Virus record (IMG/VR): IMGVR_UViG_2623620506_000007
Span: 1 to 16,606 of that record
Source: a virus
Taxonomy: Duplodnaviria; Heunggongvirae; Uroviricota; Caudoviricetes
Strand: one strand, 5' to 3'
Length of the DNA stretch: 16,606 nt
The notes below the pieces were generated by a model. That model had not been told where the DNA came from and searched no databases. It saw only the letters and a program-made list of their open reading frames with translations. Every line of letters starts with the position of its first letter. The stretch's first letter is position 1. Position numbers and translations under genes: made by a program. This document shows positions 1 to 14,971 of this stretch, in pieces.

Positions 1-84
1 ATGGCGGGTTATTTGTCCTGGTTATTCCCCCGTTGTAAAATCTCTCCTAAACTTAACGGTACGGCACCACACTTCGGGGATGAA

Positions 85-276
85 ATGTTCGCGCTGGTAC
101 TTTTTGTTTGCTACCTGGATGGCGGTTGTGAAGATATTGTTGTGGATGTCTACAACACGGAACAGCAGTGTCTTTATTCTATGAGCGATCAACGGATCCG
201 CCATGGCGGTTGTTTTCCGATTGAGGATTTTATAGATGGTTTCTGGCGACCTGCACAGGAGTACGGTGATTTTTAA
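85..276 (+). CDS. yebW: Small conserved protein, YebW-like (63 aa from the internal ATG at 85)
   Basis: ORF 1..276 in the track; the internal ATG at 85 gives a 63-aa product. It is convergent with pphA, which matches the yebW-pphA arrangement I recall from E. coli K-12. Identity rests on synteny and recalled size, not a search. Confidence 0.4.
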   Translation: MFALVLFVCYLDGGCEDIVVDVYNTEQQCLYSMSDQRIRHGGCFPIEDFIDGFWRPAQEYGDF

Positions 277-933
277 TTATTGCAATTGCACAAGAGTCAG
301 TTCGCCCCCAAAGACAGCACCGGTATCAATATAATGCAGGTTGCCAATATCCACGCGATGTCGCAACGGTGTATGACCAAACCAGAAATAATCAGCACCT
401 GTAATTCCCTGCCCTTTTTGGCGTTCACCTAATCGCGAGCGGCTCCACAAGACCTGATGCAAATCAACGTCCTTTTGCCATTCATAAACATCATCTGGAT
501 AATCGGCATGAGCAATAACATGTTTGCCGGTACGACTGTGTACTTCAAGAATAAAGGGCAAATGCTGACATTTTTCCAGCGCCGTTTTCGCTTGTTTCTG
601 TTGATTATCTGCCAGCGCAATAAACCAGTCGCCGCCATTCATCAACCACAAAGACATCTGCTGAGATGCCAGCGCATCCATCGCCATCTGTTCATGATTG
701 CCTCTTACCGCACGAACCCAATGTTGTTCCAGTAACTGCAGACAACGTAAACTTTGCGGCCCACGATCGATAACGTCTCCCACTGAGATAAGTAAATCTC
801 GCCACGGATCAAAACGACAATGCCATAATTTGCGGCGCAACTGCTCAAGACAACCGTGTATATCGCCAGAAAGCCAGATATGTCGCCATTGATGACCCGC
901 AATTCTCTGATAAACGGGCGCAGGCTGTTTCAT
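277..933 (-). CDS. pphA: Serine/threonine protein phosphatase 1, PP1/2A/2B (calcineurin-like) metallophosphatase
   Basis: Metallophosphatase motifs GDIHG, GDVIDRG and GNHE are present in the 219-aa track ORF. The first codon in the track is TTG; the ATG at 933..931 gives 218 aa, preceded by GGAGG about 9 nt upstream. The N-terminus matches my recollection of E. coli PphA/PrpA. Confidence 0.9.
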   Translation of the reverse strand: MKQPAPVYQRIAGHQWRHIWLSGDIHGCLEQLRRKLWHCRFDPWRDLLISVGDVIDRGPQSLRCLQLLEQHWVRAVRGNHEQMAMDALASQQMSLWLMNGGDWFIALADNQQKQAKTALEKCQHLPFILEVHSRTGKHVIAHADYPDDVYEWQKDVDLHQVLWSRSRLGERQKGQGITGADYFWFGHTPLRHRVDIGNLHYIDTGAVFGGELTLVQLQ

Positions 934-1060
934 CAATATTTTCCTCCCGCGCTAAAGATCACATAATCTTAACAAGAATGTTAAAAAACGCTGGACTCAG
1001 ACAGTAGAGTGTGTGTTATGGTTGACTATAAAGTCAGCGAAGGGAATGCTTCTGGCTTTT

Positions 1061-1093
1061 AACAGATAAAAAGAGACCGAACACGATTCCTGT
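1061..1093 (-). ncRNA. sdsR: 3'-terminal fragment of sRNA SdsR/RyeB (terminator half plus U-tract); putative att core
   Basis: The minus strand reads ACAGGAAUCGUGUUCGGUCUCUUUUUAUCUGUU, which matches the 3' end of SdsR as I recall it. The 5' half of the terminator stem that should follow (CCGAACAC) is replaced by CGUAAAC, so similarity stops near 1094. The rest of the sRNA gene is absent. Confidence 0.4.
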
Positions 1094-1104
1094 TTACGCC
1101 CCAA

Positions 1105-1155
1105 TCAATAAAAACCCTTTAAATTCATCGTCATAATCCATAAAACCCTTCAAAA
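1105..1155 (+). repeat. Two direct copies of ATAAAA(A)CCCTT(T/C)AAA about 31 bp apart; candidate integrase arm-type sites
   Basis: caATAAAAACCCTTTAAAttc at about 1108-1123 and ccATAAAACCCTTCAAAAac at about 1140-1155, in non-coding DNA just inside the putative att junction. Confidence 0.3.
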
Positions 1156-1386
1156 ACAACGATGCAATACTTACCATTGCGTTCTTTCAAGATCAAACTT
1201 TTGCCAATCTATTCGAGTGCGCGACGAGTAAATTTCGTGGCGTCATAATCGTTGATTTAATTATCGCGCATTTGCAAAACTATGCGCAGCTCCTTCCAGA
1301 AATCACCTCGGCTTGTTTACAGCCACCCCGACCGCCGGCACAATCGCCACCGATCTGTTTGTATGATTTATGGTGCGCACCGCCTT

Positions 1387-2655
1387 TCAACGGACAATCA
1401 ACAAATCAGAAAATCTTGTCGTATATCGAGGCGACAGCATTTCCCTTTTCATTTGCCACTGCTGCTGAACGCCCTGGCCAGCAAAGTAAATCGTTCCCCT
1501 ACCGTCTTTGGCATTAAGATTATCCAGCAACTCCATGAGCTTCTCGCTGCCTGCCCGCGGCGCGTTCTCATCAAAGAGATTAAGCTGAGCGACACCCTGA
1601 CTGAAGAAGTCGCCAAGCATGACGCCGGCTTTCTGATACCGATGGCCGTCTCGCCAGATTTTGTCCAGGCACTTTACCGCCGCATTGATTATGTCCCGGC
1701 TGTCCTGCGTGGGAATAAGAAGCTTAATTGATGCACTGTTGCCATAGTAGGGTTCATTAAGGGCAAAGGGGCTGGTCTTCACGAAGGCTGAGATAAAGCG
1801 GCAGTACTGATGCTCACCGCGCAGTTTCTCCGCCGCGCGTGCAGCGTAGCTGCAGATAGCCTGGCGCATCTGCTCATAATCGGTAACCCGCTCGCCAAAA
1901 GAGCGGGAGCAGACAATTTCCTGTTTCGCCGGCGCAAACTCCTCCAGTTCAAGGCATGGCTCGCCGCGCAGTTCCCGCACGGTACGCTCCAGCACCACAT
2001 TGAAGTGTTTTCGGATAATCCATGTGCCCTGCTCTGACAGGTCCAGCGCGGTTTTAATGCCCATTGCGTTGAGCTTTTTGCTGATGCGCCTGCCGACGCC
2101 CCAGACATCCTCCACGGGAACGAGAGACATTAGCCGACGCTGGCGATCGACGTTCGACAAATCCACTACGCCGCCGGTCTGCCGCTGCCATTTTTTCGCA
2201 GCGTGATTAGCAAGCTTCGCCAGGGTTTTGGTCTGGGCAATGCCGACGCCCACGGTAAGATGTGTGTTCTGCAAAACCGTAGCGCGAATTTCCCTTCCAA
2301 AATCTTCCAGGTTCCGGCAATTCCGTACGCCAGTGAGATCGCAAAAGGCCTCATCGATTGAGTATATTTCTACGCGAGGGCTCATTTCCTCGAGCGTTGT
2401 CATTACACGCTGGCTCATGTCCGCATACAGCTCATAATTGGAACTGAAGCAGACCACGCCGTAGCGACGGAACAAATCTTTCTGCTTAAAGAAAGGCTCG
2501 CCCATTTTAATGCCCAGCTCTTTCGCCTCCGCAGAACGGGCAATAACACATCCATCATTGTTAGAAAGCACGACCACCGGCCGCCCTTTCAGGTCTGGTC
2601 TAAATACCGTTTCGCAGGATGCGTAAAAAGAATTTACGTCACAGAGCGCGAACAT
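1387..2655 (-). CDS. umuC: UmuC, catalytic subunit of error-prone DNA polymerase V (Y family), 422 aa
   Basis: From the ATG at 2655 the product starts [22 protein letters not shown] and runs full length with the beta-clamp motif QLNLF. It is very similar to enterobacterial UmuC from memory. The track start at 2670 is a longer alternative; the ATG at 2655 overlaps the upstream stop as TGATG. Confidence 0.95.
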
Positions 2656-2930
2656 CACATCACCGGGCAATCATCAAAGTCAGTCGGTTCGCCAGAATGC
2701 GTTAAGATACCGACCAACTGAACATACTCCAGTGATTCCCCTTCAATGGCCTCACCTTCTTCAGTAATCAGCGCATTCCCAGCTTTATACGCATATTGCT
2801 GGCGACCGCAAAACCATATCAGCAATGTGACGCTGGCGTAAGCATGTCTCTCGCACTCTTCTGGAACGTCTAACATTTCGATATTAGGTAAGCTACCGCA
2901 TACCTCAAAGTTCTCTGTGTAATCAATCAT
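2655..2930 (-). CDS. Small acidic 4-Cys protein (91 aa) in the position normally held by umuD; function unknown
   Basis: ATG at 2930 with AAGGGG 7-12 nt upstream, LexA box and promoter directly upstream, and stop overlapping the umuC start (TGATG). No S24 peptidase hallmarks (no GDSM-type serine, no TVKK-type lysine), and it is too short for UmuD (about 139 aa). The other two frames are full of stops, so this is not a frameshifted umuD. Confidence 0.65.
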
Positions 2931-2946
2931 CTGCCCGCCCCTTATG

Positions 2947-2989
2947 TACTGTTTTTATATACAGTAGTTTTAATTTGAGGGCAGAGCAA
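2947..2989 (-). promoter_or_regulatory. LexA (SOS) box overlapping a sigma70-like promoter for the small-ORF-umuC operon
   Basis: Plus strand 2947-2966 is tactgtttttatatacagta, which on the minus strand reads TACTGTATATAAAAACAGTA, a perfect CTGT-N8-ACAG palindrome. It matches the E. coli umuDC operator as I recall it. -35 TTGCTC (2989..2984) and -10 TACTGT (2966..2961) are 17 bp apart, with the -10 inside the LexA box. Confidence 0.85.
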
Positions 2990-2994
2990 GAGAT

Positions 2995-3591
2995 TTACAC
3001 TTCTGGTGATGATGGCCAGTTGATCTGAGGAGCCGTCGAAGTATCGACTCCCTCGAGCGCATCGAGATAATCAAGCCATGCGTTATACTTCGCCTTTTCC
3101 GGATCATTCAGGCGGCCCATAGCTGCTTTGCCGGGCCACTGCTTACTGTTCATAAACTCATTTGCCTGATCGATTCTGTCCTGTTTCTCTGCTTCAGCAG
3201 CCGCAACATCAGCAGTATGTTCAGCTACAGTATCGGTTACCCATTTGGTGCCGTCCCACTTATCGTAGGGACTAGAAGGTGTGATGAGGGTATAACCATC
3301 GTGAATCGGCCCGATGTAATCTACGATTACAGCTGATTTGTCAGTGGTTGAATAAACTCTTTTACCGCGATTATCTTGTTTTTGTTCCCAATTACTACCG
3401 TTGAAAACCGCAACTTTTCCGGCAACCTCATCACCAGGATCAATATCTGTTGAATGCCCGGGCATGCTTACACCGATGTTAATGAATTCGTCAGACCAGC
3501 CCATATATTCTGATGTCACCGAATCATAATAAAAACAGCGAATTTCGCCATTTTGTGTTGCTAATCCATTTTCATCAAAAACAGGTTTCAT
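2995..3591 (-). CDS. Tail fiber assembly protein (Tfa chaperone)
   Basis: 198 aa with the C-terminal stretch KYNAWLDYLDALEGVDTSTAPQINWP typical of lambda Tfa / P2 gpG-type chaperones. It lies immediately downstream of the fiber gene, and its start overlaps the fiber stop (TAATG). Confidence 0.8.
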   Translation of the reverse strand: MKPVFDENGLATQNGEIRCFYYDSVTSEYMGWSDEFINIGVSMPGHSTDIDPGDEVAGKVAVFNGSNWEQKQDNRGKRVYSTTDKSAVIVDYIGPIHDGYTLITPSSPYDKWDGTKWVTDTVAEHTADVAAAEAEKQDRIDQANEFMNSKQWPGKAAMGRLNDPEKAKYNAWLDYLDALEGVDTSTAPQINWPSSPEV

Positions 3592-4313
3592 TACTTAGCC
3601 CTCACCAAAAAGTTAAATGCGATGTTACGCGGCCTTGTCTCGACATCCCCTGTAGAGCCTGTCTCAATGATGTAGTTTGTTAACGTGCCACCAGCGTCCG
3701 CACCAACAACGTACTGCCCAGATGTAGGGTCAAATCCTGTCGCCCCCCAGGTCTTTTCAAATCTATGAGTGTGTGCTTTTAAAGAGTCCGCCTGTGCACT
3801 TAACAACGCCCGGCCGCTATCAATCCCGCGGCCATCATCCCAAACACGCAGAAATTCTCCACGTGCTTCAGTTAGCGTTAGCCCAGGAAATACCAGGGCA
3901 AGTTTTGGGTAGGTTGAAGCTGAAAATGTAGCGCCGTTAAACTTCAGAAACACCATATCTGCCCATTCGGTCATAACGGTATTAGGCATTGCTGACGATG
4001 GCCAGAAGAATGGAATACCAATGGCAGGCGCACCCGCCTCTAAGCGCAGGTTCTTGATAAGCGCATTCGTGAATTTTGTCACCAGGCCATTGACGTCTGC
4101 ATTGTCCAGGGCATCAACGCCGGAGTTGGCAATAAACTGTCCCACTACCGCTGCGATAGTAGTCGCTTGGCGAAGCGCTTTATTTACTTGTGCGCTGGAC
4201 GCTTTGCCTGCAGCAAAACCAGACAGCAACGCGGGTAGCGCTTCCCAGCCAGCCTGTGGAGTTACATTAGCGTTAGGATCAAGCGCGAACGCTTTAAAGT
4301 TGTTTGTTGCCAT
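3591..4313 (-). CDS. Tail fiber protein with tail-collar-type domain
   Basis: Contains EARGEFLRVWDDGRGIDSGRALLSAQADSLKAHTH, which resembles the phage tail-collar / fiber motif. The ATG at 4313 (MATNNFKAF...) is preferred to the track start at 4331. Only about 240 aa, which is short for a fiber. Confidence 0.7.
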   Translation of the reverse strand: MATNNFKAFALDPNANVTPQAGWEALPALLSGFAAGKASSAQVNKALRQATTIAAVVGQFIANSGVDALDNADVNGLVTKFTNALIKNLRLEAGAPAIGIPFFWPSSAMPNTVMTEWADMVFLKFNGATFSASTYPKLALVFPGLTLTEARGEFLRVWDDGRGIDSGRALLSAQADSLKAHTHRFEKTWGATGFDPTSGQYVVGADAGGTLTNYIIETGSTGDVETRPRNIAFNFLVRAK

Positions 4314-4993
4314 CAGAATAATACCCCCCATGCGCCGGTATCAAAACCGCCGATATATTCGTTATCCATATCAAAACCAAAGAATTTTGAGCCTTCGGAG
4401 GGTGTTTCAACCGAAGGCATTTCAACATCACCAGCCCATACGCCAGCTGCTTTAACGGTGAGATAACCCTGCTTGATAGCGGCAATCAGTTCGAGTGACA
4501 CATCCGAAATATCGGTCTCCGGGAATACCCAGACCGAGATCGTCATGTCCTGGTTGTCAACGATCTGCATCTTCAGGCCCGAACCCACCGTGGCAGTGTC
4601 AAGAATGTCCGGAAGCGAATCGTTACGCCCGTCCCAGTTGTTAATAGCGATTTTTGCTTTCAGAATAGTGCGATAGGTATCATCGCTAAGCGTCGTATAG
4701 CCGGAGTCAGGATCATATGGCCCCTGCCATACGCCCTGGTCATATCCGAGCCCCTCCGTGTCCCAGCTGAAATAAACGCCACTTATCGGCTGGCTGACTA
4801 TACGGCTACGTCCAATCCAGAGTCCGAGAATATCGAGCTGCACGCCAACAGCCGTATCGATGTCAAACGCACCCACCAGACCCCTTGTGGCTGACGTGAT
4901 ATCAATCAGGGGACGGGTACTCAGGTCGATGTGATCGAGGTATTTCGGCTTAGTGGCGTGGTAGTTAGTGATTAAATCCGTGTACCTGCTCAT
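4313..4993 (-). CDS. Baseplate / tail protein, DUF2612-like (e14 YmfQ-like)
   Basis: 226 aa between the J-like gene and the fiber, the position held by YmfQ-type proteins in e14/SfV-like tails. Start overlaps the J-like stop (ATGA). Family assignment is from position and general character, not a search. Confidence 0.5.
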   Translation of the reverse strand: MSRYTDLITNYHATKPKYLDHIDLSTRPLIDITSATRGLVGAFDIDTAVGVQLDILGLWIGRSRIVSQPISGVYFSWDTEGLGYDQGVWQGPYDPDSGYTTLSDDTYRTILKAKIAINNWDGRNDSLPDILDTATVGSGLKMQIVDNQDMTISVWVFPETDISDVSLELIAAIKQGYLTVKAAGVWAGDVEMPSVETPSEGSKFFGFDMDNEYIGGFDTGAWGVLF

Positions 4994-6189
4994 GACGTCA
5001 CCGTGATAACGATGTTTGCCGGTTTACATGAAGCTGATTCGTCGTAGGCTATGATTATGTTTGCCGATGCTACGGATCCTGCTGATTTACCGATGAGTAA
5101 TTCCTGGATGTCGTAATAACGCGCGCTACCGCCGCTGACCACCCCGAGGTTGGCAGGTGAATAAATGCGGCTCAGCAGCACCGAATCACCGATCGTCAGA
5201 GCGTTGATGTAATCCGCAACGGCCTGCTGAATCGCCTTCCCTATTTGTGATGTGTAACCTGCGAAAGCTTTCAGCGTTATATGTCCGTAAATAGGAACAT
5301 CCGTTGACCGGGAAAAGCGAATCACATGGGGATTACCGTATTTATCCGGCACCGTGACGGCTGTCGCACCATACGTTGACACCCCCTGCCCCTTATTGCC
5401 CCTGATGGCCTGGGCGATTTCAGTCAGATCGCCGCCATCCACGATGGCAGAGATAGAGTGTGGCGGCAGCCCATTACTGTCGGTCGTGCCGGTATCATTC
5501 TCGTAGAGCTTGTGACGTGTAACCCCTGCAACGTTCACTATCGCACCGTCCACGCCTTCAAACGGCGTGATGGAGGGTAGCGCGACGCTCTGCCCCTGCC
5601 GGGTACGCAACTCTGCATCGGTTTCCGCCGGGGAGCCGACGGTGGCCGCCGCCGGGTTAGTTACCGAAGTCCAGCCGCGCGTCGGTGTGTTAATGGTCGT
5701 GACCGTTCCGGACAGCGCGGCCACTGCGCCGCTATTTGAGCAGGTGGCAGTGACCGTCGCCGTCCCGTCTAAACCAATTACCACTGAGGCCGGCATGTTC
5801 CAGACCAGGCCATTCTTATCCCTGACGGAACCATTTGAAATGGTCGTCCCGGCCGCGCCGCTAAGCAATAAATCAACCGTTGAGTTGGTAGCCGTTCTCC
5901 TTTTGATACCGTTTATTTTTACGTTCTTGCTCAGCCCTGCGCCATAACCGGTGGCGGGCGAAAAGCTGTTGTAAACAGCAATGGCCGTGTTATTAGCATC
6001 GTGAATAGCCAGGGCCACCAGAGCAACCATCTGCCCGTCTTTGCTGTCAGGATTCAGATAAGCATCGCTGCCATATATCTGTTTAAAGTAGTTGGTCAGG
6101 GTGTCCAGTATTGTCTGGTAATCAGGCGCGCTGATCCCCTCAGCGGTTACCGTTGCCGATAAGCCGAGCGTGTCCAAATTGAGGGCCAT
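4990..6189 (-). CDS. Baseplate J-like protein (P2 gpJ / Mu gp47 family)
   Basis: 399 aa, Thr/Gly/Ala-rich, in the canonical position after the gp25-like gene and directly abutting it. Confidence 0.75.
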   Translation of the reverse strand: MALNLDTLGLSATVTAEGISAPDYQTILDTLTNYFKQIYGSDAYLNPDSKDGQMVALVALAIHDANNTAIAVYNSFSPATGYGAGLSKNVKINGIKRRTATNSTVDLLLSGAAGTTISNGSVRDKNGLVWNMPASVVIGLDGTATVTATCSNSGAVAALSGTVTTINTPTRGWTSVTNPAAATVGSPAETDAELRTRQGQSVALPSITPFEGVDGAIVNVAGVTRHKLYENDTGTTDSNGLPPHSISAIVDGGDLTEIAQAIRGNKGQGVSTYGATAVTVPDKYGNPHVIRFSRSTDVPIYGHITLKAFAGYTSQIGKAIQQAVADYINALTIGDSVLLSRIYSPANLGVVSGGSARYYDIQELLIGKSAGSVASANIIIAYDESASCKPANIVITVTS

Positions 6190-6543
6190 TTATGCCTCGC
6201 TGGTAAGGGTGGTTTGTCCGTAGATAGTGTTTATGGTGGCTGTGAACGTAACCCGGCGTGTCGTGCTTTCATTCACGGTATCAAAGGCCAGGATGGACAG
6301 AACGCCAGGCGTGGTGCTGATGCGATCCCTGATCGCAAGGTTATAAACCTCAGGCCTTTGCTTTCCCAGAACAGACTGGATATAGGGTGTGCCCGCGGTC
6401 GTGTCCAGAAACCACTGGCCCTTCCACAGTTCAAAGCGAGTTTTTACGGCCTGGGCCACGCACTCAGGGGAGTTGATCAGGAAAGTATCATCGCCCTGGC
6501 CGAAGGTGTAGTCTCCGTCTTCGTCTTCGCGTCGGTATCGCAT
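6190..6543 (-). CDS. Baseplate wedge protein, GPW / gp25-like
   Basis: 117 aa between the spike and J-like genes. The segment AQAVKTRFELWKGQWFLDTTAGTPY fits the gp25/GPW pattern as I recall it. Confidence 0.5.
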   Translation of the reverse strand: MRYRREDEDGDYTFGQGDDTFLINSPECVAQAVKTRFELWKGQWFLDTTAGTPYIQSVLGKQRPEVYNLAIRDRISTTPGVLSILAFDTVNESTTRRVTFTATINTIYGQTTLTSEA

Positions 6544-6545
6544 AA

Positions 6546-7199
6546 TTACCCCCCCAGTGGTTTCGTATTGCTGCCGCCGCTTTCCACGCCGCCATGCGTA
6601 TGCTTATCAACCATTGAGCCATCCACCAGCTGCAGGCGGCCGTCAGGCAGAATTTTCAAACCGTTGAGGTTAAAACCTCCCGGCGCAGTTCCCGTTATCG
6701 CTCCGGTTGAAGGATTAAGACTCAACCTGGTACCACCGTCGTCGCTGCGCAGTTCAACCGCACTGGTACTGATGCCGCTGATTTTCTTTGCCTGCGACTG
6801 CGGCCCCACTATGGCAAACGCATCACTCAGGTCATGCTGGCGCGGGTCAACCGGTTCCTGTACCCCGCCGCTCTGCCACCAGAAGTCGATGCAGCGATCC
6901 GAGAAGACCAGGAGGCATTCGTCACCGGACTTTACCGGGAAAGTTAAAGTGCAGCCGCCGCCGCGGGGAAACACCACCGGAACGTCTGGCAGGATCGGTA
7001 TCTCCTCAGAAACCAGAGCACCATCGTCGCCGAGCCGCTGACCATAGATGGCCGGCTGCACGGTGCATGTCACTGTTTCAGGGTCAAAGGACTGGATGAT
7101 CCCCGGCAAAGCCACGCGCAAGCTGCCGAAAATGGCGTGGCGATGCGCCTCAAGGGTCTGCGATTCGTTGCCGTCCTGCGCGCGGGCTGATACTGGCAT
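6546..7199 (-). CDS. Baseplate spike / assembly protein V-like (Mu gp45 / P2 gpV type)
   Basis: 217 aa with a Gly-rich C-terminal tip carrying HTH (VDKHTHGGVESGG), as in the metal-binding apex of gpV-type spikes. GGAGA lies 7-11 nt upstream of the ATG at 7199. Confidence 0.65.
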   Translation of the reverse strand: MPVSARAQDGNESQTLEAHRHAIFGSLRVALPGIIQSFDPETVTCTVQPAIYGQRLGDDGALVSEEIPILPDVPVVFPRGGGCTLTFPVKSGDECLLVFSDRCIDFWWQSGGVQEPVDPRQHDLSDAFAIVGPQSQAKKISGISTSAVELRSDDGGTRLSLNPSTGAITGTAPGGFNLNGLKILPDGRLQLVDGSMVDKHTHGGVESGGSNTKPLGG

Positions 7200-7210
7200 A
7201 GTTTTCTCCA

Positions 7211-7240
7211 GGCAATAAAAAACCCGCCGTAGCGGGTTTG
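7211..7240 (-). terminator. Rho-independent terminator for the minus-strand transcript
   Basis: Minus strand reads CAAACCCGC-UACG-GCGGGUUU followed by UUUUUUAUU: an 8-bp GC-rich stem with a 4-nt loop and a U-tract. It sits 16 nt after the stop at 7256 and directly upstream of the spike gene RBS. Confidence 0.7.
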
Positions 7241-7255
7241 CGTGAAAAGGTGATT

Positions 7256-7576
7256 TTATATGTCTTTTTTAAGTACTAACTGGCAGTCATCCTTGGTTAA
7301 TCCCAAAACTTTTGCCGACTCCTCATAACCGCAGGCGGTTTTCACTCTCCTGAATCCGAGCAAGGCAAACTTATCACCTTGGGTTTCCATGAGATGTTTT
7401 TCGTCCCCACCTTCTCTTCTTGCGAAGCCTGCAGCTTCAAATCTTGATGCTTTTGATATAGCCACATGAACCGGGAAGTTTTCATCCAGATCGGGATGTT
7501 TTTTGAAGAAGTCAGCCAACGTTCCAGCCGTACATGAAAATGAAGCCAGGATGATAAAAACAAGCAGTCCTTTCAT
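7256..7576 (-). CDS. Small exported protein (106 aa, N-terminal signal peptide, Cys-containing); moron gene 2
   Basis: N-terminus MKGLLVFIILASFSCTAG is hydrophobic and signal-like, with no canonical lipobox. Local GC is lower than in the flanking tail genes, and the terminator follows. Confidence 0.55.
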   Translation of the reverse strand: MKGLLVFIILASFSCTAGTLADFFKKHPDLDENFPVHVAISKASRFEAAGFARREGGDEKHLMETQGDKFALLGFRRVKTACGYEESAKVLGLTKDDCQLVLKKDI

Positions 7577-7581
7577 GATAG

Positions 7582-7911
7582 TTACCCATTAGCACTACAG
7601 TTATAAGTCCCAAAAACTCGCGGAGCGTTCATATTTGCCCTAAGCGCTTCAACATTCAAAAAAGCCTTGCCGTCACGCTTAATCAGTTCATAGCCATATG
7701 CATACCCATCAGGGGCAGGGGACAAAACCATCTCAAGCTTCATGTTGGAATAGTCGCCTTTCGCCTTCAAAAAAGTAACTTTTTGAGTGCTGGTCACCAC
7801 CCCGTTTATTGTCGTTTCGCCTGACTCGTTGGCATCAACTAGCCATTTACCACACTTTAACCCCGAGGCATGACTAATGCCTGCAGCCAGTAGCACCAAG
7901 ATACCTAACAT
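7582..7911 (-). CDS. Small exported protein (109 aa from the ATG at 7911, signal peptide with SHA-SG cleavage-like site); moron gene 1
   Basis: The track ORF 7582..8028 overlaps the hub gene by 110 nt. The internal ATG at 7911 gives MLGILVLLAAGISHASG..., a typical signal peptide, and starts 7 nt after the hub stop. Low-GC segment. Confidence 0.55.
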   Translation of the reverse strand: MLGILVLLAAGISHASGLKCGKWLVDANESGETTINGVVTSTQKVTFLKAKGDYSNMKLEMVLSPAPDGYAYGYELIKRDGKAFLNVEALRANMNAPRVFGTYNCSANG

Positions 7912-7918
7912 CCTAATG

Positions 7919-8992
7919 TTAACCGCCACCTGGAACTCCCCTTGCGATTGCAGAGCTCGATAATAAATCCTTCGCCCCGCGCGCCATACACATGAGGTCC
8001 ATATACCATGGATTTCCCCTCGTATCACCGGTGTAGCTGATTGACTGAACTATGTAAACGCCATCAGTTGCCACACTGGCGGGCTGCGCAATAGTGCCGC
8101 CAAGGGAAAGGTTACCATCATTGCTCGACTCTGTGATCCTTGACTGTGATCTTTGAATTTCGTCGTTGGGCAGCTGCGAACGATAGACTGATGCCTGGTC
8201 CAGCTGGATCAGGCCATTCACACGGATGTTTGGGTTGATGAGACAGCGAACATTGACGCCGGCGCCCATGGTTTGCTGGGGCATGCCGACCAGTCCCGTT
8301 TCACTACTGAGCACGCTCGCTTCATGAAGGTATTTATTCTCAGGCACCATTTGCAGCTGGCCGTCGACAAATTGCCAGTTAGCCTCGCACTGCGCCGCCA
8401 GGTTGCTCATGTAGTCGCGCGTTGCGCCGAAGAAGACGCGACCACGTGGCATGACACGGTCAGGAAACTGCACGGTGATGCCCTGGGTGATGCCGTAAGG
8501 CGAAAAGTCCTTCATCAGAAGTGAATGCACGTCGGCAAGCTTATATCCTGCCGCCAGGCTACCGGACGATACGGCTTCATTGAACGCCTTATGGCCATCC
8601 ACCGACTGAATTAGCGTAAAAATATCGGTAGGATTATCGCGCCCGGTTATCGTAAAACGGATCTCTCCATCAAAAATAACCCCGTAATTCTGCCCGCGCG
8701 TCTGGCCGGTTTGCTCAGATGAAATCTCGGTAACCTGCCCAACCTCACTTTCGGTAACCGTCGGCGCCAGGCCGTTATACCCGGCTATGATGGTAATGCG
8801 AGAAAACTCATCCCCCGTAATCCGGGTGATTGTGTCACGCTTGAGGTTGTAAATTTTAAGCGTCGCCACACGTGGCCACATCGAGTTAAACCAGTCGATT
8901 GCGAAGGTAACTTTAAAGTCCGACAGGGATATTCCGTTCCCCTTGTCGTTCAGAAGCCGCAGTTCAAAATGGCGATTCCAGTTAATAGTCAT
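7919..8992 (-). CDS. Probable baseplate hub protein (P2 gpD / Mu gpP-like)
   Basis: 357 aa in the position that follows the tape measure and small tail proteins and precedes the spike in Mu-like tails. The call is based on gene order and size only. Confidence 0.45.
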   Translation of the reverse strand: MTINWNRHFELRLLNDKGNGISLSDFKVTFAIDWFNSMWPRVATLKIYNLKRDTITRITGDEFSRITIIAGYNGLAPTVTESEVGQVTEISSEQTGQTRGQNYGVIFDGEIRFTITGRDNPTDIFTLIQSVDGHKAFNEAVSSGSLAAGYKLADVHSLLMKDFSPYGITQGITVQFPDRVMPRGRVFFGATRDYMSNLAAQCEANWQFVDGQLQMVPENKYLHEASVLSSETGLVGMPQQTMGAGVNVRCLINPNIRVNGLIQLDQASVYRSQLPNDEIQRSQSRITESSNDGNLSLGGTIAQPASVATDGVYIVQSISYTGDTRGNPWYMDLMCMARGAKDLLSSSAIARGVPGGG

Positions 8993-8995
8993 GCG

Positions 8996-9301
8996 CTATT
9001 CCTGAACAAAATAAAGATGGCTCGAGGCACCAAGGTTTGTTTTCGTCGGGTATTCAGGGGCGCCGTTGTCTGTCATAACCACCAGCGCGCCAGATATCCC
9101 CAGATCCGGATACTGAGCCAAAAGGTTAACTCCCGGCACCAAAGGAACACCCATTAACAGAGGTTGCGCGCCGCTATCCATCACGTCCATTATCCAGCCG
9201 GCATCATCGCGCCACAGCACGCGGAGCGTATAGCTTACGTCGCCCAGGGTGATGCGAAACTCCTGGTTATCGGGAATCATAGGTATCTCATTAACGCTCA
9301 T
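8996..9301 (-). CDS. Tail / baseplate protein, function unknown (101 aa)
   Basis: Translationally coupled on both sides: ATGA overlap with the upstream gene, and its stop lies 3 nt from the hub start. Confidence 0.5.
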   Translation of the reverse strand: MSVNEIPMIPDNQEFRITLGDVSYTLRVLWRDDAGWIMDVMDSGAQPLLMGVPLVPGVNLLAQYPDLGISGALVVMTDNGAPEYPTKTNLGASSHLYFVQE

Positions 9302-9876
9302 GGTCCCCTCGCAAAATCAGCTATTTTCTGAATTACAGATGAACTGCTGGTCGGCACCAGAGATTTCATCCCTGTATTTTGTACTGGCGCAGTGCTGACC
9401 CCTTCCTGCATGTTGGCCTTATCCGTAACAGTGATGCTCTGCGTATCAGACATGATCACTTCCCGGAGCGTCAGAACGCATGACAGCACATTTTCGCTGG
9501 TCCGGTCCGTGGTGACCTCGATAGCGCGTATCAGCATATTGCTGTAGGTGCGCTTGCCGGTGACAACATCAAACGGCACCCGGGATTGTTGCAACTCCAG
9601 CAACTGCTGATAAATCTCCCTCGGGCTCTCGCCAACCCGCAAGCCTATGCTGGACAGATTCACCAGGTCGAGTACCGACCCGCCGCCGGCAAATCCGCAC
9701 TCCATAGTGACCTCACTGGCGCGCTTATAGGCGTGGTCGTTTATAGCGGCGCCAAACTCCACCGGATGTTCAGTAATTTCCAGAGCATCAACATGCTTCT
9801 CCGATACCACCACGTCAGGCACAAAAATACCTATTTTCCGAGACTGCAGCCGGAAGATGGCCGACAAAATATCCAT
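9298..9876 (-). CDS. Tail protein, function unknown (192 aa), directly after the tape measure gene
   Basis: Its ATG at 9876 overlaps the tape measure stop (ATGA). Confidence 0.5.
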   Translation of the reverse strand: MDILSAIFRLQSRKIGIFVPDVVVSEKHVDALEITEHPVEFGAAINDHAYKRASEVTMECGFAGGGSVLDLVNLSSIGLRVGESPREIYQQLLELQQSRVPFDVVTGKRTYSNMLIRAIEVTTDRTSENVLSCVLTLREVIMSDTQSITVTDKANMQEGVSTAPVQNTGMKSLVPTSSSSVIQKIADFARGP

Positions 9877-11864
9877 CAGTAGACCCTCGGTTGTAGCTGC
9901 TGAGTGAGACGGGAGTTAACGCCGGATTGACGATCGGCAACCTCCCGGCCAGTGGATGCCGGGTCGCTCGCGCCGTAAATGTTGATGTTCGTTTCCTGGC
10001 TAATCTGAGCTGGTGCGCCAGCCCCCACTCCAGCAGCCATAGTTACCAGTTCGCTTGGATATGGGTTGCGTCCGTTTTCATGGTGGATAATCCCATTCAT
10101 GAGTGATGACAGCACCTGAGGATCTTTCAGGTTCAGTGCGGTATCTGGCGCGACACCGAGTAATTTAGAGAGCTGCGAAATATACGCCTCAGTGTTGTTT
10201 TCACTATCTGGTGCCCAGGTTGAGATGATTTCACTTAGTGTCTGCAAAGGCTTGCCCGTTGTTTTGCCTTCAAAGTAACGCATCAACTGCCGTGCCATTG
10301 CTTTCAGCCCATCAAATGCAGAGCCAAATTTGGCAAATCGCCCTCCTGCCCTCTCTAACTGGGCGCCTTCCTGCCCTTTGAAATCGAGGTTGCCTGGGTT
10401 GTTATTTCTGATGCCACGAGGCAAAGCTGATTGAGCGTGCTGATCTGGGTCTTCCTCACCAGTAAACCATCTGCCAATGCTTCGCGGATCAAAACCAGTC
10501 CGGCTCTTAATCCACTCGGCGGTATTATTCGCGCTATCCGAAACAGCCGGCAAAGCATCGGGATTATCTCTTCCCTGCGCCAGCAGGTTCTTGCCGATCG
10601 CATAAGCATCAGACCACCGGCCCTCGTTGATGGCGTTAATCAGATCGCCAATCATCTTGATCATCTTGCCAAACTCACCGAACTGCCGGGTAAGATTTTC
10701 GATGTCGCCTTTAAGGGTCCAGTTTTTGAGGTTGATATTGAGCAGCTTAGCGATTTCAACTCCTATCGCCTTCACGGAATCCCGCAGCTCGGCCAGCGAT
10801 TTCAGGGCAGCCTCTATTTCTGGCTCCCATTTATCCCAGGGCAGCAGGCTTTGACCGCCTTCTTTCCAGGTTTTGTAGTCGTCGTATAGCGCGAACAGCG
10901 CCGAGCCTAGCGCGATTACGATACCTATCGGCGATTTGAGGAACTCAGTGTTAAGCAACTGCCAAGCCGAGACCAGCCCGGACACAAGCATGATCAGCTG
11001 CTGTATATCGGGCGGCAGTTTTTTGAACCACTCAATCAGGCCACCTACCGCCTGCGAGACGCGCCACGCCATCTGGGTAATGACATCAGCAGCAAAGAGC
11101 ACCCCCTTCACTATCTTCGTGACCACGCTCTCTATCTTCGGCCAGTTCTCCAGCATCTGCTTGCTGAGATTGTTCAGCGTGCCGCTCAGGCCGCCGGCCA
11201 GATTCGAGCCAACCTTATCGCGCAGGATCCCCAGTAGCGAAACGAAGTTGCGCATGGAGGTCATGAACTTGTTGGACTGCTGCGCGGCCTTGTCAGCATC
11301 AAAGCCTGTCTTCTGCATCATCGACTGGTATTCAGCCGTGAAGCCGGACATTCCGCGCCGCATTGCCATCAGCGTGTTTTCGTCAATGCCCAGCATCTGC
11401 GCGAACTGGTTGGCACGATAATAGGGCATGGTGCTGAGGCGCTGGCCGACGCCGGTGAAGATAGCCGACATGTCACGCATCTGTCCGGAAGCGTCCCGGG
11501 TCTGCACCCCAAGGCGGTTCAGGAAGCCTTCGGCTCCGGGATTGCTGCGCATGAAGCGTGCCAGGCTCTCCAGTGAGTTCTGGGCAGCCTCGGCGCTGGA
11601 GCCGGTTTGTGAGGCAGCGTAGCCAAGTGCCTTGATGCCGTTGACCGATGCCCCGGTGCGTTCCGCGGCCCAGTAGAGTTTATCCAGGCCGCTGGCGATC
11701 GAGGCAGTGAGGCCCACGATGGCCAGCCCCGTTGACTCAACCACGGCCCCCAGTTTTACGACGTTTGCAGCCACACCTTTGAGCGTGGCTTCAAATTTCG
11801 CCTGGCCGGCGCCATCAATGTCGAACCCCAGAGAGACCAGGTAATCACGGATAGTATCAGCCAT
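9876..11864 (-). CDS. Tail tape measure protein (662 aa)
   Basis: Position after the chaperone, size, and Ala/Gly/Gln-rich helical sequence. There is a hydrophobic segment at about residues 290-327 and a distinct motif-rich segment at 483-605 (RGIRNNNPGNLDF ... HHENGRNPYP). GGAG lies about 13 nt upstream of the ATG at 11864. Confidence 0.85.
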   Translation of the reverse strand: MADTIRDYLVSLGFDIDGAGQAKFEATLKGVAANVVKLGAVVESTGLAIVGLTASIASGLDKLYWAAERTGASVNGIKALGYAASQTGSSAEAAQNSLESLARFMRSNPGAEGFLNRLGVQTRDASGQMRDMSAIFTGVGQRLSTMPYYRANQFAQMLGIDENTLMAMRRGMSGFTAEYQSMMQKTGFDADKAAQQSNKFMTSMRNFVSLLGILRDKVGSNLAGGLSGTLNNLSKQMLENWPKIESVVTKIVKGVLFAADVITQMAWRVSQAVGGLIEWFKKLPPDIQQLIMLVSGLVSAWQLLNTEFLKSPIGIVIALGSALFALYDDYKTWKEGGQSLLPWDKWEPEIEAALKSLAELRDSVKAIGVEIAKLLNINLKNWTLKGDIENLTRQFGEFGKMIKMIGDLINAINEGRWSDAYAIGKNLLAQGRDNPDALPAVSDSANNTAEWIKSRTGFDPRSIGRWFTGEEDPDQHAQSALPRGIRNNNPGNLDFKGQEGAQLERAGGRFAKFGSAFDGLKAMARQLMRYFEGKTTGKPLQTLSEIISTWAPDSENNTEAYISQLSKLLGVAPDTALNLKDPQVLSSLMNGIIHHENGRNPYPSELVTMAAGVGAGAPAQISQETNINIYGASDPASTGREVADRQSGVNSRLTQQLQPRVY

Positions 11865-12102
11865 TATTCTGGGCTCTCCATTTGGCTACAAGCGCGTCGT
11901 TATCGTCACGCATATCGAGGTAATCGTTAAGCAGCGCGATGCGGCACAGGTCCACTGCACCGCTGTCGAGGTCTTTCTGATCGAGGTTAAAAGCGAGCGC
12001 CGGACGCAGGATGTAGTCTTCCCCGCCCGGCATCGTATTGAAGGTTATTCCGCTGGCGGGGTGTTCGTCTCGCTGGTAGGGAGTCCTTGCAAAAAATTTC
12101 CC
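11857..12102 (-). other. -1 frame extension ORF of the tail assembly chaperone, reached by a putative programmed frameshift
   Basis: Frame-0 sequence CUG GGA AAU UUU UUG holds overlapping slippery heptamers G_GGA_AAU and U_UUU_UUG (plus 12090-12102). The -1 frame is then open for about 69 codons through the gap to a TGA at 11859..11857, overlapping the tape measure start. The gap is otherwise unannotated. Confidence 0.45.
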
Positions 12103-12470
12103 AGCGAATCGGCGACCACCCGCGCCACAAGCTGCAGCATCACGAACAGGTCGATATCATCAAAGGCCATGGTGCCCTGCTGGCACACCGGCACCCAGGC
12201 GCTCATATGCTTGCGCGCTACCACCTGCAGGCAGGGAAAAAGGATCGCATTCACGTCGTCATCACTGAGGCCGGAAACGGCGCCAGCGATCTTCGGCAGA
12301 ATACTTTCCATCGCGCCTTCGGTGTCTTTGGCATTCAGCTTCGTCTGGATGTTACGGAAGTCAGAAACCAGACCCGCCAGAACCGGCAGCAGCTTGCGGG
12401 ATACCTTTAGCTGTTCGAAAACGCTTAACTTAGCGATACGGTACTGCTGATCCTTGATAGTAATTTCCAT
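12045..12470 (-). CDS. Tail assembly chaperone (lambda gpG / P2 gpE analogue)
   Basis: 141 aa between the tube and tape measure genes, acidic C-terminal half, with a frameshift-accessible extension downstream. Confidence 0.7.
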   Translation of the reverse strand: MEITIKDQQYRIAKLSVFEQLKVSRKLLPVLAGLVSDFRNIQTKLNAKDTEGAMESILPKIAGAVSGLSDDDVNAILFPCLQVVARKHMSAWVPVCQQGTMAFDDIDLFVMLQLVARVVADSLGNFLQGLPTSETNTPPAE

Positions 12471-12473
12471 GAA

Positions 12474-12914
12474 TTAATACTCCCCCAGGAACGGGTCGAT
12501 TTTGATGCAGTCGAACACCCAGGCCACCGTCCCGCCCTCTTTGGCGTTCTGCCAGTCGGGGTGCTTCTGAAAGGCGCCGCCGCGCGCGGTCATGATGTCG
12601 CCAGATGCAGTGTTGCGGAACACAAAGACGTTATTGCCCCACAGCGCGGAAGACTGACTTTGTGCGTTGTAGGCCAGGGACAGCTTTTTGTTTACCGGCG
12701 AGGTTTTCAGGAGGTTAACGGTTACCGTTCCAGCCTTGCCGGCGTGCAGGGAGTGCATGCCCTCACCGTCAGCGCCGATCGTCATGGTGTTTTTATTTTC
12801 AACCATGGCGACGGTGATGCCCTCTTCTGAGTTGGCAGAACCGGCGCCGAGGTCAATCACCCCGGTGGGGCCAGTCATTGACCCCGTGATATCCAGAAAA
12901 GAATAAGTGCTCAT
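12474..12914 (-). CDS. Tail tube protein
   Basis: 146 aa immediately downstream of the sheath gene, typical size and position. G-rich RBS before the ATG at 12914. Confidence 0.7.
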   Translation of the reverse strand: MSTYSFLDITGSMTGPTGVIDLGAGSANSEEGITVAMVENKNTMTIGADGEGMHSLHAGKAGTVTVNLLKTSPVNKKLSLAYNAQSQSSALWGNNVFVFRNTASGDIMTARGGAFQKHPDWQNAKEGGTVAWVFDCIKIDPFLGEY

Positions 12915-12925
12915 TCAGTGCCCCC

Positions 12926-14416
12926 TTAGCGCACCACGTCGATTAATACATCAGCGAAGTGGATAGCCCCCGCCAGTTTGGTTGCTACCTGAATCACCGG
13001 CGCCTTACGCGCTTCACGATCTGCCTGCGCCTGGGCGTTGAGCGGGTTCGCATAAACGTAATAGCCTTTGGTCAGCATATCGCCTGATGTCAGCTGTCCG
13101 ACGTCACCGCCGTTCCAGATCCCCGGTGCCACCAGACCGTTGTTTACAGACTGGTCCATAGACTGTTCGACATTGGTCACCAGGCGCGTCACGCCCGCTT
13201 CGGTCTGCGGGATTTTGGTGGTTGAGGTGTAAAGCAGGTTCCAGAGGTTGTTCTGGACGTAGTTCTGCAGCCAGTCGAGACCGTGGCGCTCGTCGAAGAA
13301 GTCGCCGTTCGACATCACGCCTTCCTGGATGATGGCGGTATCGTTGGCGTAGCGCACAAACACGTTGCAGTTTTTTGCCTTGAGCGTGTCGGCCTGCTGC
13401 GCGGTGATCGTTTCGGCAGTGATGCCCGGCTCCTGCTTGAATTTCAGGGTGATGGTGGTGTTGTTACCCAGGAAATTTACGGTGAACGCGCGACCGAAGG
13501 CGGAAGCTGCCGCATATGGCACCTGGCTGTACTGGCAAAACGTACGGCCATAACCAGCAGCTTTCAGCCTGTAGGCAATATCCGTGGTGCTGGTTGAGTC
13601 CAGGACCTCGGTCGCCGCAGTTGTCACACCGTACACCCGGGAATCGCTCGCAGAGCCGATCAGGGCAGATACATCGATATGGTCCTGGTCCGTCATTGCA
13701 GTATCGGCGATAACCAGTCCATACCAGTCGGCTGAGTAGTTCAGCGCTGTATTCACCGACGGCAGCACTGAGGATGAGGCATCCTGGCCGTTTGACACGG
13801 TGGGGTTATGCGCTGAGTCAATGCCCAGCAGCGGCGCCAGGTCAGTGCCTGTGCCGGCAGCAACAGGAATACCGATCGCCGAGGAGGCCCCGGTAGTGGA
13901 AGATGTCACCACAAACTGATTCGAGCCGGCCACGTAGGAAACGGTGGTACCGGTAAGTTTCGCAGTGACGGCGGTCGCTACTCCGGCCAGATCGGTCACC
14001 GCTGACAGGTCGATACCCGTTACGGTTTTAACAGTGCCGTCCACCGAGATCTTAATCGCACCATCGTCGATCGCGGTAAAGTTTGCTATCGCCTGCTCTG
14101 CAGAGGTCAGTACAGCACCAGTGAGCTTGCCGGCCGTTGCCGGGCTGGAGGCGCGTTCCAGTTTGCCGATATACAGATCGCGGGGCTGCGGCGACTGCTG
14201 GAAGTAAAGGTTTGCCGCCTTGTACTCTTCAGCGGTAGTGCCAAAGTCAGTGGCGACACTTTCGATATCCTGGTAAAGGCGCATCACTTCTGGGGCAGTG
14301 ATTACGTCGGCGGTGCCGAGAACCAGCAGCGCGCCGAAGTTACGCCCGGCCGCCGCGCGAACGGCGAGCGCGACCTGCACGCGAACGACGCGTGATACAG
14401 ATAAGCCGTTAGGCAT
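12926..14416 (-). CDS. Contractile tail sheath protein
   Basis: 496 aa, Thr/Ser/Ala-rich with a conserved-looking C-terminal region, followed by tube, chaperone and tape measure genes. GGAGA lies 8 nt upstream of the ATG at 14416. Confidence 0.85.
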
Positions 14417-14419
14417 GAT

Positions 14420-14971
14420 TTAATCTCCGAAAAATTGTACTGGAGCAGAGAGGATGGATTTGATGCCGTACTCGCGTACCGTCTTGCGCCGTAGCGTCAC
14501 GGACAGGTCGTAGCGGCGCTGCCACTGGTTGTTGACGAGCTCCGGTGCCGGGATGATTCGGCCCACCTCGCCGAGCGTGAGGCCGACGCGATTTAGTTCA
14601 GCATTGTTCTGGGACACGAACAGACCGTTACGAAACGTTTTGGCGTAAGCCTGGCCTGCAGGTCCGTAGAAACAGCAGAGCACCACCAGCGATTCGAATT
14701 GCCACTGGTAGTCGGTGTCGTCGTCTTTGGTTACGGATGCCGGGTTGGCTGTGTCCTGGAAGTCTGTGATACCAAACCCGCACCAGTTGGTGCCCAGCAC
14801 CGGGATCGCTGGCTGAGGGTCGGTGAAGCGTGGTATGGCCATGCCATCCGGCAGACCAGATACACCACGTATCCACCGGCTGAGCTCGCGCTCAAGCGCT
14901 TGGTCATACTGCGGCGCCGGGCTGACTGGCGTCAGGTAACCCGGTTGCGTGGTGTCATTCAACTGGAGCAC
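14420..14971 (-). CDS. Phage structural protein preceding the sheath (neck or tail-terminator candidate)
   Basis: The track ORF begins at a TTG at 15043 and overlaps the upstream gene by 89 nt. The GTG at 14971 with GGAG upstream is the preferred start; an ATG at 14842 is an alternative. Start is uncertain. Confidence 0.4.
   Translation of the reverse strand: MLQLNDTTQPGYLTPVSPAPQYDQALERELSRWIRGVSGLPDGMAIPRFTDPQPAIPVLGTNWCGFGITDFQDTANPASVTKDDDTDYQWQFESLVVLCCFYGPAGQAYAKTFRNGLFVSQNNAELNRVGLTLGEVGRIIPAPELVNNQWQRRYDLSVTLRRKTVREYGIKSILSAPVQFFGD

Follow-up and report, generated by a model that had tools for sequence, protein, structure and literature searches.

An SOS-regulated operon at a prophage end

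We analyzed a 16,606-nucleotide stretch of a virus of the class Caudoviricetes (IMG/VR record IMGVR_UViG_2623620506_000007, positions 1 to 16,606; hereafter the window), in which a two-gene operon on the minus strand pairs umuC with an upstream open reading frame (ORF) of 91 amino acids. An initial annotation of this DNA had described the LexA box, promoter and TGATG coupling of a umuDC operon, and all of these are present in the sequence. The features of the operon and of the adjoining prophage end are listed here.

2984 to 2989, minus strand: -35-like hexamer TTGCTC of the SOS promoter, read from the sequence; similarity to the related cassette of locus L004 starts exactly here
2947 to 2966, minus strand: LexA (SOS) box TACTGTATATAAAAACAGTA, the sole CTGT-N8-ACAG in the window
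2938 to 2943, minus strand: putative Shine-Dalgarno-like AAGGGG, 7 nt 5' of the ATG, from the sequence
2655 to 2930, minus strand: small ORF of 91 amino acids, by profile and BLASTP matches a probable minimized, catalytically dead HumD/UmuD'-like protein of the PHROG 3469 lineage
2835 to 2930, minus strand: residues 1-32 of the small protein, clade-specific, acidic and predicted to be disordered, and not a GFPSPAAD arm (from the predicted local distance difference test, pLDDT; a homologue search; and the ratio of nonsynonymous to synonymous substitution rates, dN/dS)
2694 to 2834, minus strand: residues 33-79, conserved beta-barrel core (...GEAIEGE...VGILTH), corresponding to about residues 84 to 135 of UmuD' (from pLDDT, profile alignments and dN/dS)
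2658 to 2693, minus strand: residues 80-91, C-terminal tail, a HumD-type extension ending DFDDCPVM (from BLASTP against HumD)
2653 to 2657, minus strand: TGATG stop/start overlap of the small ORF and umuC, from the sequence; same junction in L011 and L013
1387 to 2655, minus strand: umuC, full-length Y-family polymerase of 422 amino acids (from domain and NCBIfam matches)
1128 to 1386, no strand: non-coding end of the prophage, separating umuC from the E. coli chromosome; similarity to the host stops near 1128-1131

The perfect LexA box (2966-2947) overlaps a -10-like TACTGT, and a 17-nt spacer separates TACTGT from the -35-like TTGCTC (2989-2984). The CTGT-N8-ACAG pattern occurs once in the 16.6-kb window, at this box, with 0.14 matches expected by chance. 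A generic sigma-70 promoter scan gave no score for the TTGCTC/TACTGT promoter. The TTG(C/A)TC-17 nt-box layout was found again in homologous loci, with TTGATC in L004 and in the loci of types A and B, and in nearly all related loci a LexA box lies 30-35 nt before the small gene or before the gene upstream of it. The LexA core CTGTATATAAAAACAG also stands upstream of umuD in phage Oslo and upstream of geneA in L070.

At the other end of the small ORF, its TGA (2657-2655) shares an A with the ATG of umuC (2655-2653). This one-base overlap fixes the umuC start at 2655 and not at the GTG at 2658, and gene calls on identical contigs give the same UmuC length of 422 residues. Of the directly coupled loci, two were read, L011 and L013, and both carry the identical junction CCGGTGATGTGATGTT. 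UmuC is full length, as had been claimed: the IMS, IMS_C and DUF4113 domains are all present, and its score against the NCBIfam model for the UmuC of DNA polymerase V (Pol V; NF002955, cut-off 431) is 876 bits. Between the window and L004 the dN/dS of umuC is 0.024; the gene is intact and under purifying selection.

The interval from the LexA box to umuC measures 292 bp, in line with the earlier estimate of about 290 bp and too little for a UmuD of 139 residues. Besides the 91-residue ORF, neither strand of this interval holds an ORF longer than 31 codons, so a UmuD cannot hide there. The locus has the canonical umuDC layout, with the promoter covered by a LexA box and the first gene overlapping a full-length umuC, but that first gene does not encode a self-cleaving UmuD.

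Descent of the small protein from the HumD/UmuD' lineage

The small ORF (2930-2655, minus strand) encodes a protein with an isoelectric point (pI) of 4.05, with 18 aspartates and glutamates against 3 lysines and arginines. It has cysteines at positions 11, 26, 41 and 88, serines at 13, 33, 66 and 79, and a single lysine, K49. No match was found in NCBIfam, and the only hit in Pfam was a sub-threshold one to UL11 (E 0.08). The Pfam S24 model (PF00717) and the NCBIfam models for UmuD (NF007621) and HumD do not see the protein, and neither database has a model for its family. PHROG 3469, labeled 'UmuD-like protein', does match residues 29-91 (E 6e-18, profile positions 44-106 of 106), and it matches relatives of 105 or 106 residues over their full length. 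The description of the first gene as not a recognizable UmuD was thus right in that the protein is too short for UmuD and escapes Pfam and NCBIfam, but it was too strong, given that PHROGs and RefSeq phage annotation already label relatives as UmuD-like.

A search of 5.8 billion proteins returned 174 homologous clusters, almost all of them 102- to 105-residue 'hypothetical proteins' of Enterobacter, E. coli and Hafnia, and an exhaustive profile search gave 153 representatives at 50% identity. The 91-residue form itself falls into only two clusters at 90% identity, P0001 (99% identical to the window protein) and P0002 (78% identical). A tblastn search of a phage collection with the 91-residue query found no match, probably because of low-complexity masking; with a 106-residue relative as query it found 77 phage records. 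The family is common in cultured temperate phages of Klebsiella, Escherichia, Enterobacter, Cronobacter and Erwinia, where its members are annotated as 'hypothetical' or 'UmuD-like'. Our literature search found no experimental or comparative study of the PHROG 3469 family.

Typical family members, drawn from the profile search and from phage genomes, have about 106 residues and begin with M-GFPSPA(A/M/T)DY(V/I/Q)E. In E. coli, the N-terminus of UmuD' arises by RecA-stimulated cleavage of UmuD between Cys24 and Gly25, and it is this post-cleavage N-terminus with which the 106-residue relatives start. We searched 177,635 Protein Data Bank (PDB) sequences with a profile built from 37 diverse family members (alignment A3), and its three best matches were UmuD (8gmt, E 1.8e-4) and UmuD' (1umu and 1i4v). 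Profile positions 2-65 align with UmuD residues 25-100, with a gap of 11-12 residues exactly over the Ser60 loop. A narrower family profile (A1) found nothing relevant among the PDB sequences; only the broader one reached UmuD. We also used hhalign to compare the family with an alignment of P1 HumD, 16 HumD-family proteins and four full-length phage UmuDs, which gave a probability of 99.1% and an E of 6.7e-19 over all 106 columns. This alignment shows the Ser60 deletion again, together with a second shortening in the distal sheet, and in the profile alignments the family strand (D)V.(V/L)(I/V)GV(V/L)TH falls on LDVFGVVIHVV of UmuD.

The window protein is tied to this family by its core and its tail. 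It is 49% identical to gp26 of phage mEp390 over 57 residues in the core region (E 5e-17), and BLASTP against P1 HumD (E 4e-4) aligns the C-termini end to end. Its last residues, DFDDCPVM, correspond to EFDDCPVI in P1 HumD and to the HumD family consensus EFDDCPVM, an extension that UmuD lacks. Because PHROG 3469 and mEp390 gp26 link the window protein to a family that is itself linked to HumD and UmuD', we place it in the same lineage, and common descent with the UmuD' domain is supported by both the family profile and hhalign. The 'extremely diverged mini-UmuD' that the initial annotation had offered as one of its readings is therefore the one that the PHROG 3469, PDB and hhalign matches support. 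We conclude from the alignments that the ORF most probably encodes a minimized, protease-dead member of the HumD/UmuD' lineage, derived from it and not unrelated to it.

Several observations indicate that protease function has been lost. Aligned with either UmuD or HumD, the family shows a deletion of the Ser60 loop, the column of Lys97 holds K, R, Y, W or V and is not conserved, and the window protein lacks the Ser-Lys dyad that UmuD forms with these two residues. The only candidate pair, S13 and K49, does not hold up in relatives: Ser13 is Gly in P0002, and K49 is W in most close relatives. No propeptide precedes the post-cleavage Gly with which relatives begin, and the window protein has no Cys/Ala-Gly cleavage site. 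With the Ser60 segment deleted and Lys97 not conserved, self-cleavage would be neither needed nor possible. As for a UmuD C-terminal domain with an intact dyad, which the initial annotation had considered, the family profile does match UmuD and UmuD', whereas the dyad is absent; the claim that S24 hallmarks are missing stands. Only one of the 37 family members touches PF00717, at E 0.013.

Two further candidates within the small protein were rejected. The CG dipeptide at residues 11-12, whose EVCGSLP context had been likened to the UmuD cleavage site LVQCGFP, does not occur in P0002. In the family alignment its counterpart is an internal (L/I)CG motif, some 20 residues beyond the UmuD' N-terminus, so the resemblance is spurious. 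A Zn-binding site formed by the four cysteines, which are present as had been described, was ruled out because the set is not conserved: P0002 has other residues at positions 11 and 26, most relatives have Asn at position 88, and C41 is kept in the near subfamily only.

Comparison with known proteins of the lineage defines what the window protein has kept. P1 HumD (129 residues; NF051876, 'HumD family translesion DNA polymerase', which also covers N15 gp26) is likewise phage-encoded and LexA-controlled, with a LexA site annotated in P1. It has a pre-cleaved start at the UmuD' N-terminus, as in the 106-residue relatives, and the same C-terminal extension, (E/D)FDDCPV(I/M), and at the family level the homology extends over the full length. 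HumD differs in having a complete S24 fold with an invariant Lys97 equivalent and Ser or Thr at the Ser60 position, and the Pfam S24 and NCBIfam models both recognize it. Shorter by 38 residues, the window protein has neither the Ser60 loop nor the GFPSPAAD arm, and some of the distal sheet is missing too. Against NF051876 (equivalog, at least 120 bits) P1 HumD scores 221 bits and a 106-residue relative 25 bits, over the arm only; the window protein has no match at E up to 10. The HumD-type start M-GFPSPAADYVE is thus found in the 106-residue relatives and not in the window protein, while the window protein does have the FDDCPV(I/M) extension. HumD is an orphan in P1, whereas the window gene is translationally coupled to umuC.

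Compared with E. coli UmuD' (UmuD residues 25-139; 1UMU, 1I4V, 8GMT), the small subunit of Pol V in UmuD'2C, the window gene has the same operon position, LexA box and one-base overlap. However, its product has no precursor, Cys24-Gly25 site, Ser60 or conserved Lys97, is about 24 residues shorter, and carries an unrelated acidic sequence in place of the N-arm. The PHROG 3469 members mEp390 gp26 (106 residues) and Enterobacter phage CobraSix gp29 (101 residues) belong to the same family as the window protein. The gp29 gene lies directly before umuC, like the window gene, whereas gp26 is an orphan. Relative to PHROG 3469, the first 43 profile positions, comprising the arm and first strands, are absent from the window protein, and a clade-specific N-terminus stands in their place.

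Two AlphaFold2 runs, with 32 and 50 sequences and mean pLDDT of 61-64, gave the same picture. Residues 33-79 are predicted to form a small beta-barrel of four to five strands and one short helix (pLDDT 70-89), and residues 1 to about 31 are disordered in both models (pLDDT below 50). Foldseek with this very small core returned nothing at E of 0.001 or below, with a LexA C-domain at E 0.5. The case for homology accordingly comes from sequence profiles and not from structure.

Purifying selection on the barrel core is strong. When the window is compared with L004, codons 36-91 have a dN/dS of 0.066 (dS 0.12), compared with 0.37 (dS 0.84) for the N-terminal part. In 25 distinct genes of the 102-residue family, the values are 0.04 for core codons 47-90 (dS 0.83) and 0.455 for codons 1-46. 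The absence of purifying selection had been named as a possible sign of a decayed remnant, and core values of 0.04-0.07 answer that concern.

The fast-evolving N-terminus has a more complicated history. For the N-terminal 35 residues of the window protein, tblastn and blastn against all fetched loci found no homologue outside its own clade. Most umuC-linked relatives start with MPRTADIHAAFVA (MPRTAD...) in place of GFPSPAAD, and the N-terminus of the 102-residue umuC-linked proteins (MPRTADIHAAFVAV) closely resembles the first 15 residues of phrog_3893, MPRxSDIxAAFxAAI. The phrog_3893 protein (about 80 residues, function unassigned, E 2e-40) is encoded between the LexA box and the 106-residue gene in 15 loci. 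This pattern suggests that an in-frame deletion fused the phrog_3893 gene and the small gene in the 102-residue form. The promoter, ribosome binding site and start codon of the window gene also align with those of the phrog_3893 gene, at 80-87% identity over 54-76 nt. Examples of the phrog_3893 gene lie at L070:2612-2851, L071:2615-2854 and L072:2700-2942, within loci such as L070-L083.

Distribution and mobility of the cassette

Positions 1 to about 1130 of the window match the yebW-pphA region of E. coli at 98-99% identity. This host flank identifies the cassette as the last module of the prophage, where it follows a tail-fibre assembly gene. The ORF at 277-936 with a 'Metallophos' match is accordingly host pphA and not phage NinI. 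No integrase was found on this side of the prophage in the end segment (about 1130-1386), and transfer RNA (tRNA) and Rfam scans of the cassette and prophage end were empty.

The prophage in the window is of the myovirus type, with sheath and baseplate genes. L004 contains the same cassette (7940-9544, corresponding to 1387-2989 of the window), with a P0002-type small protein and a UmuC that is 98.8% identical, yet here the cassette lies beside the integrase of a prophage of the lambda-like siphovirus type, which occupies another site in the chromosome. The similarity between the two sets in at the -35 hexamer, and promoter, small gene and umuC thus seem to travel as one unit. We conclude from these comparisons that the cassette is in all probability a mobile moron.

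The cassette was in none of 5,426 complete E. coli genomes searched, and an exact-match scan of representative genomes for the small gene found none. In a contig collection, the exact 91-residue protein is listed in 60 blocks, of which 24 contigs were read. umuC follows with the same one-base overlap in every displayed locus that has the exact protein (four loci) or the 78% relative.

We counted gene arrangements in the 79 closest IMG/VR loci. The small gene lies directly before umuC in 33 of them, or 34 if one locus with geneA is included. A second arrangement, in which a small gene with its own LexA box is followed by another box, a full-length umuD and umuC, was counted in 25 loci by script and in 24 without the misassigned L045. 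Fifteen loci have the PHROG 3893 gene plus a 106-residue member, one of them with umuC; four hold orphans, one has the small gene at a contig end, and one (L084) has it after umuDC. The initial annotation had raised the question of whether homologues sit consistently upstream of umuC, and the answer is divided: 34 of the 79 loci have the small gene directly before umuC, while others precede a complete umuDC or stand alone.

Several individual loci are of interest in their own right. The tandem SOS units at L043:2832 and 3321, and likewise in L044-L067, have about 145 nt between the small gene and the second LexA box. In L084:1172-3174, umuD and umuC are followed by a 95-residue small UmuD'-like gene and then by a divergent dinI-like ORF. 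In phage mEp390 (L090:1909-2821) the orphan gp26 adjoins a divergent dinI/msgA homologue just before attP, with no polymerase; the annotators of this phage had already recorded the similarity of gp26 to HumD. In Salmonella phage vB_SosS_Oslo (L002:2079-2498), the 79-residue 'UmuD-like protein' in RefSeq reflects a mis-called start, and from 2079 there is a full 139-residue UmuD with a cleavage site and a LexA box upstream.

A gene for a YedK-like SOS-response-associated peptidase (SRAP) lies convergently just downstream of umuC in several related loci (L050:5037-5708, L058:4432-5103 and L110:3260-3931), and none is present in the window. A link between UmuC and SRAP was recently reported (PMC12926913).

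Candidate roles of the small protein

With moderate confidence, we favor a reading in which the 91-residue protein is a minimized, protease-dead descendant of HumD/UmuD' that serves as a ready-made partner of UmuC. In this reading its gene opens a mobile cassette of two LexA-repressed genes, which lies where an E. coli prophage ends. After DNA damage, LexA would leave its box, and the small protein and UmuC would be made from one mRNA by coupled translation. UmuC would in this way gain a ready-made small subunit, without the RecA*-dependent maturation of UmuD to UmuD'. The variant in the window has no UmuD' N-arm for the UmuC cleft, and it may supply only part of UmuD' function, such as binding or stabilization, with host UmuD' supplying the rest.

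Assigning the small protein to UmuC as a subunit is an argument by analogy, made plausible by three precedents: P1 HumD, the Pol V model and YolD/YqjX. P1 HumD is recorded as complementing UmuD' (P1 record annotation; title of the HumD paper). The Pol V model has one UmuD' protomer bound by the very end of the UmuC C-terminus, while the other protomer inserts its N-arm (PMC12926913), and the 106-residue family members retain both elements that this model needs, the arm and the barrel. YolD/YqjX (PF08863) has been proposed as a non-proteolytic UmuD' analogue with an SH3 core for the UmuC-like polymerases of Gram-positive bacteria (PMC6511836). It is alike in principle: it is small, SOS-induced and not proteolytic, it has an SH3-like core, and its gene immediately precedes that of a UmuC-type polymerase (PMC6511836; PMC12926913). 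It differs in having no sequence relation to the window protein, which has no PF08863 match at E up to 1, and YolD has been modeled as a monomer that binds by its N-arm and not via the polymerase tail (PMC12926913).

A number of points weigh against a subunit role. The main weakness is that the window protein retains only the barrel and the tail: it has no GFPSPAAD arm, and most umuC-linked relatives have a degenerate, fast-evolving N-terminus. The narrow subfamily of the window protein by itself reaches only 62% (E 7e-5) in hhalign. About 24 loci place the small gene before a complete umuD-umuC, which argues that it is not simply a UmuD replacement, and orphan members without a nearby umuC exist in mEp390, L072 and L085. 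Comparing UmuC C-tails across loci, we saw no adaptation to the small partner; the tail is alike whether the partner is UmuD, both proteins or the small protein only. Binding of the small protein to UmuC is itself a prediction. Finally, the flank is that of an E. coli host, which could supply UmuD'. E. coli K-12 has a chromosomal umuDC, and the window umuC may thus be an orphan that relies on UmuD made elsewhere, as the initial annotation had also suggested.

These points lend weight to a serious rival, which we consider possible though clearly less probable than the subunit reading. Here the prophage UmuC would use host UmuD', and the small protein would be a modulator that tunes, delays or blocks Pol V, either by binding the UmuC tail with its barrel or by heterodimerizing with UmuD or UmuD' through the retained C-terminal strand. 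The UmuD-UmuD' heterodimer is a precedent for such tuning or blocking of Pol V activity. A modulator would fit the E. coli flank, the loss of the canonical N-arm in the window protein and most umuC-linked relatives, the existence of orphan members, and a UmuC tail that is identical with or without a genuine UmuD in the locus. It would also fit the roughly 24 loci that hold both a small gene and an entire umuDC, each behind a LexA box of its own. However, the TGATG coupling is exactly conserved in the loci read and the pair moves horizontally as a cassette, both of which point to stoichiometric co-production with UmuC. Additionally, purifying selection on umuC is strong in lineages without a umuD in cis, and inhibition by the small protein is itself hypothetical.

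A broader and more speculative view, to which we give a minor share of our confidence, treats the invariant 45-residue barrel and DDxPVM tail not as a Pol V subunit but as a portable prophage module that controls translesion synthesis via the UmuC tail or UmuD' and is fused to a rapidly changing N-arm. Depending on the lineage, that arm would be the UmuD' arm, the PHROG 3893 N-terminus or, as in the window, a novel sequence. The window UmuC might then stay bound to a partner that does not activate it, until host UmuD' takes that partner's place. If this view is true, the module would add a new layer of Pol V regulation.

An improbable alternative is that the small protein acts on the RecA* filament, as a DinI/ImpC-like SOS modulator or as a non-cleavable decoy in the groove used by LexA, UmuD and repressors. 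ImpC/DinI, the product of the first gene of impCAB, is likewise small, acidic and SOS-regulated and is encoded ahead of umuD and umuC homologues; the gene upstream of umuC in the window recalls impC upstream of impAB, and the loci with small gene, umuD and umuC mimic the order impC-impA-impB. The very low pI, the mEp390 orphan next to a dinI homologue and the fact that the ancestral protein binds the RecA* groove (PMC9926225) also favor such a role. Yet the UmuD residues that contact RecA* (Y52, L54, F94, D91, E93 and the cleavage-site region; PMC9926225) lie in stretches that the small protein has lost or replaced, with G42, Q44 and Q45 of the window protein aligned with D91, E93 and F94. ImpC/DinI belongs to a different family, and no Pfam DinI domain was found in the window protein, which by its profile matches appears to derive from UmuD'.

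We regard it as very unlikely that the ORF is a decaying, functionless umuD/humD remnant, open by chance or kept for umuC start signals at its 3' end. The protein is indeed shorter than its relatives (91 against 102-106 residues), its N-terminus is clade-specific and predicted to be disordered, and the 91-residue form makes up only two clusters. Nevertheless, the strong constraint on the core, at dS up to 0.83, largely refutes decay, and the ORF is intact in all displayed loci and in the 78% relative on a different phage backbone. The tail is also kept in HumD, which has no umuC downstream, and it must therefore be conserved at the protein level. Least probable of all is a new Y-family polymerase accessory protein unrelated to UmuD, as the initial annotation had suggested: although no Pfam or NCBIfam model matches and fold searches gave no significant match, the significant chain of sequence links through PHROG 3469 and mEp390 gp26 to HumD/UmuD', and the hhalign result in particular, speaks firmly against it.

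The operon is best described as a catalytically dead, minimized HumD/UmuD' relative coupled to UmuC, a new form within a known system rather than a partner of a new kind. In E. coli, what gates Pol V activity is a slow step, the RecA*-dependent conversion of UmuD to UmuD' by cleavage. By contrast, a widespread prophage family appears to pair UmuC with a pre-truncated UmuD' relative that is incapable of cleavage. This family could show how much of UmuD' is needed, at a minimum, by UmuC, as the 106-residue form consists of core, tail and arm and the 91-residue form of core and tail. Together with full UmuD, HumD and the 102-residue form, these proteins make up a natural series of ready-made deletion mutants for the Pol V structural model. 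If the subunit reading is true, some prophages introduce error-prone polymerases for which a safety checkpoint is bypassed, which would bear on stress-induced mutagenesis and the evolution of resistance in Enterobacteriaceae.

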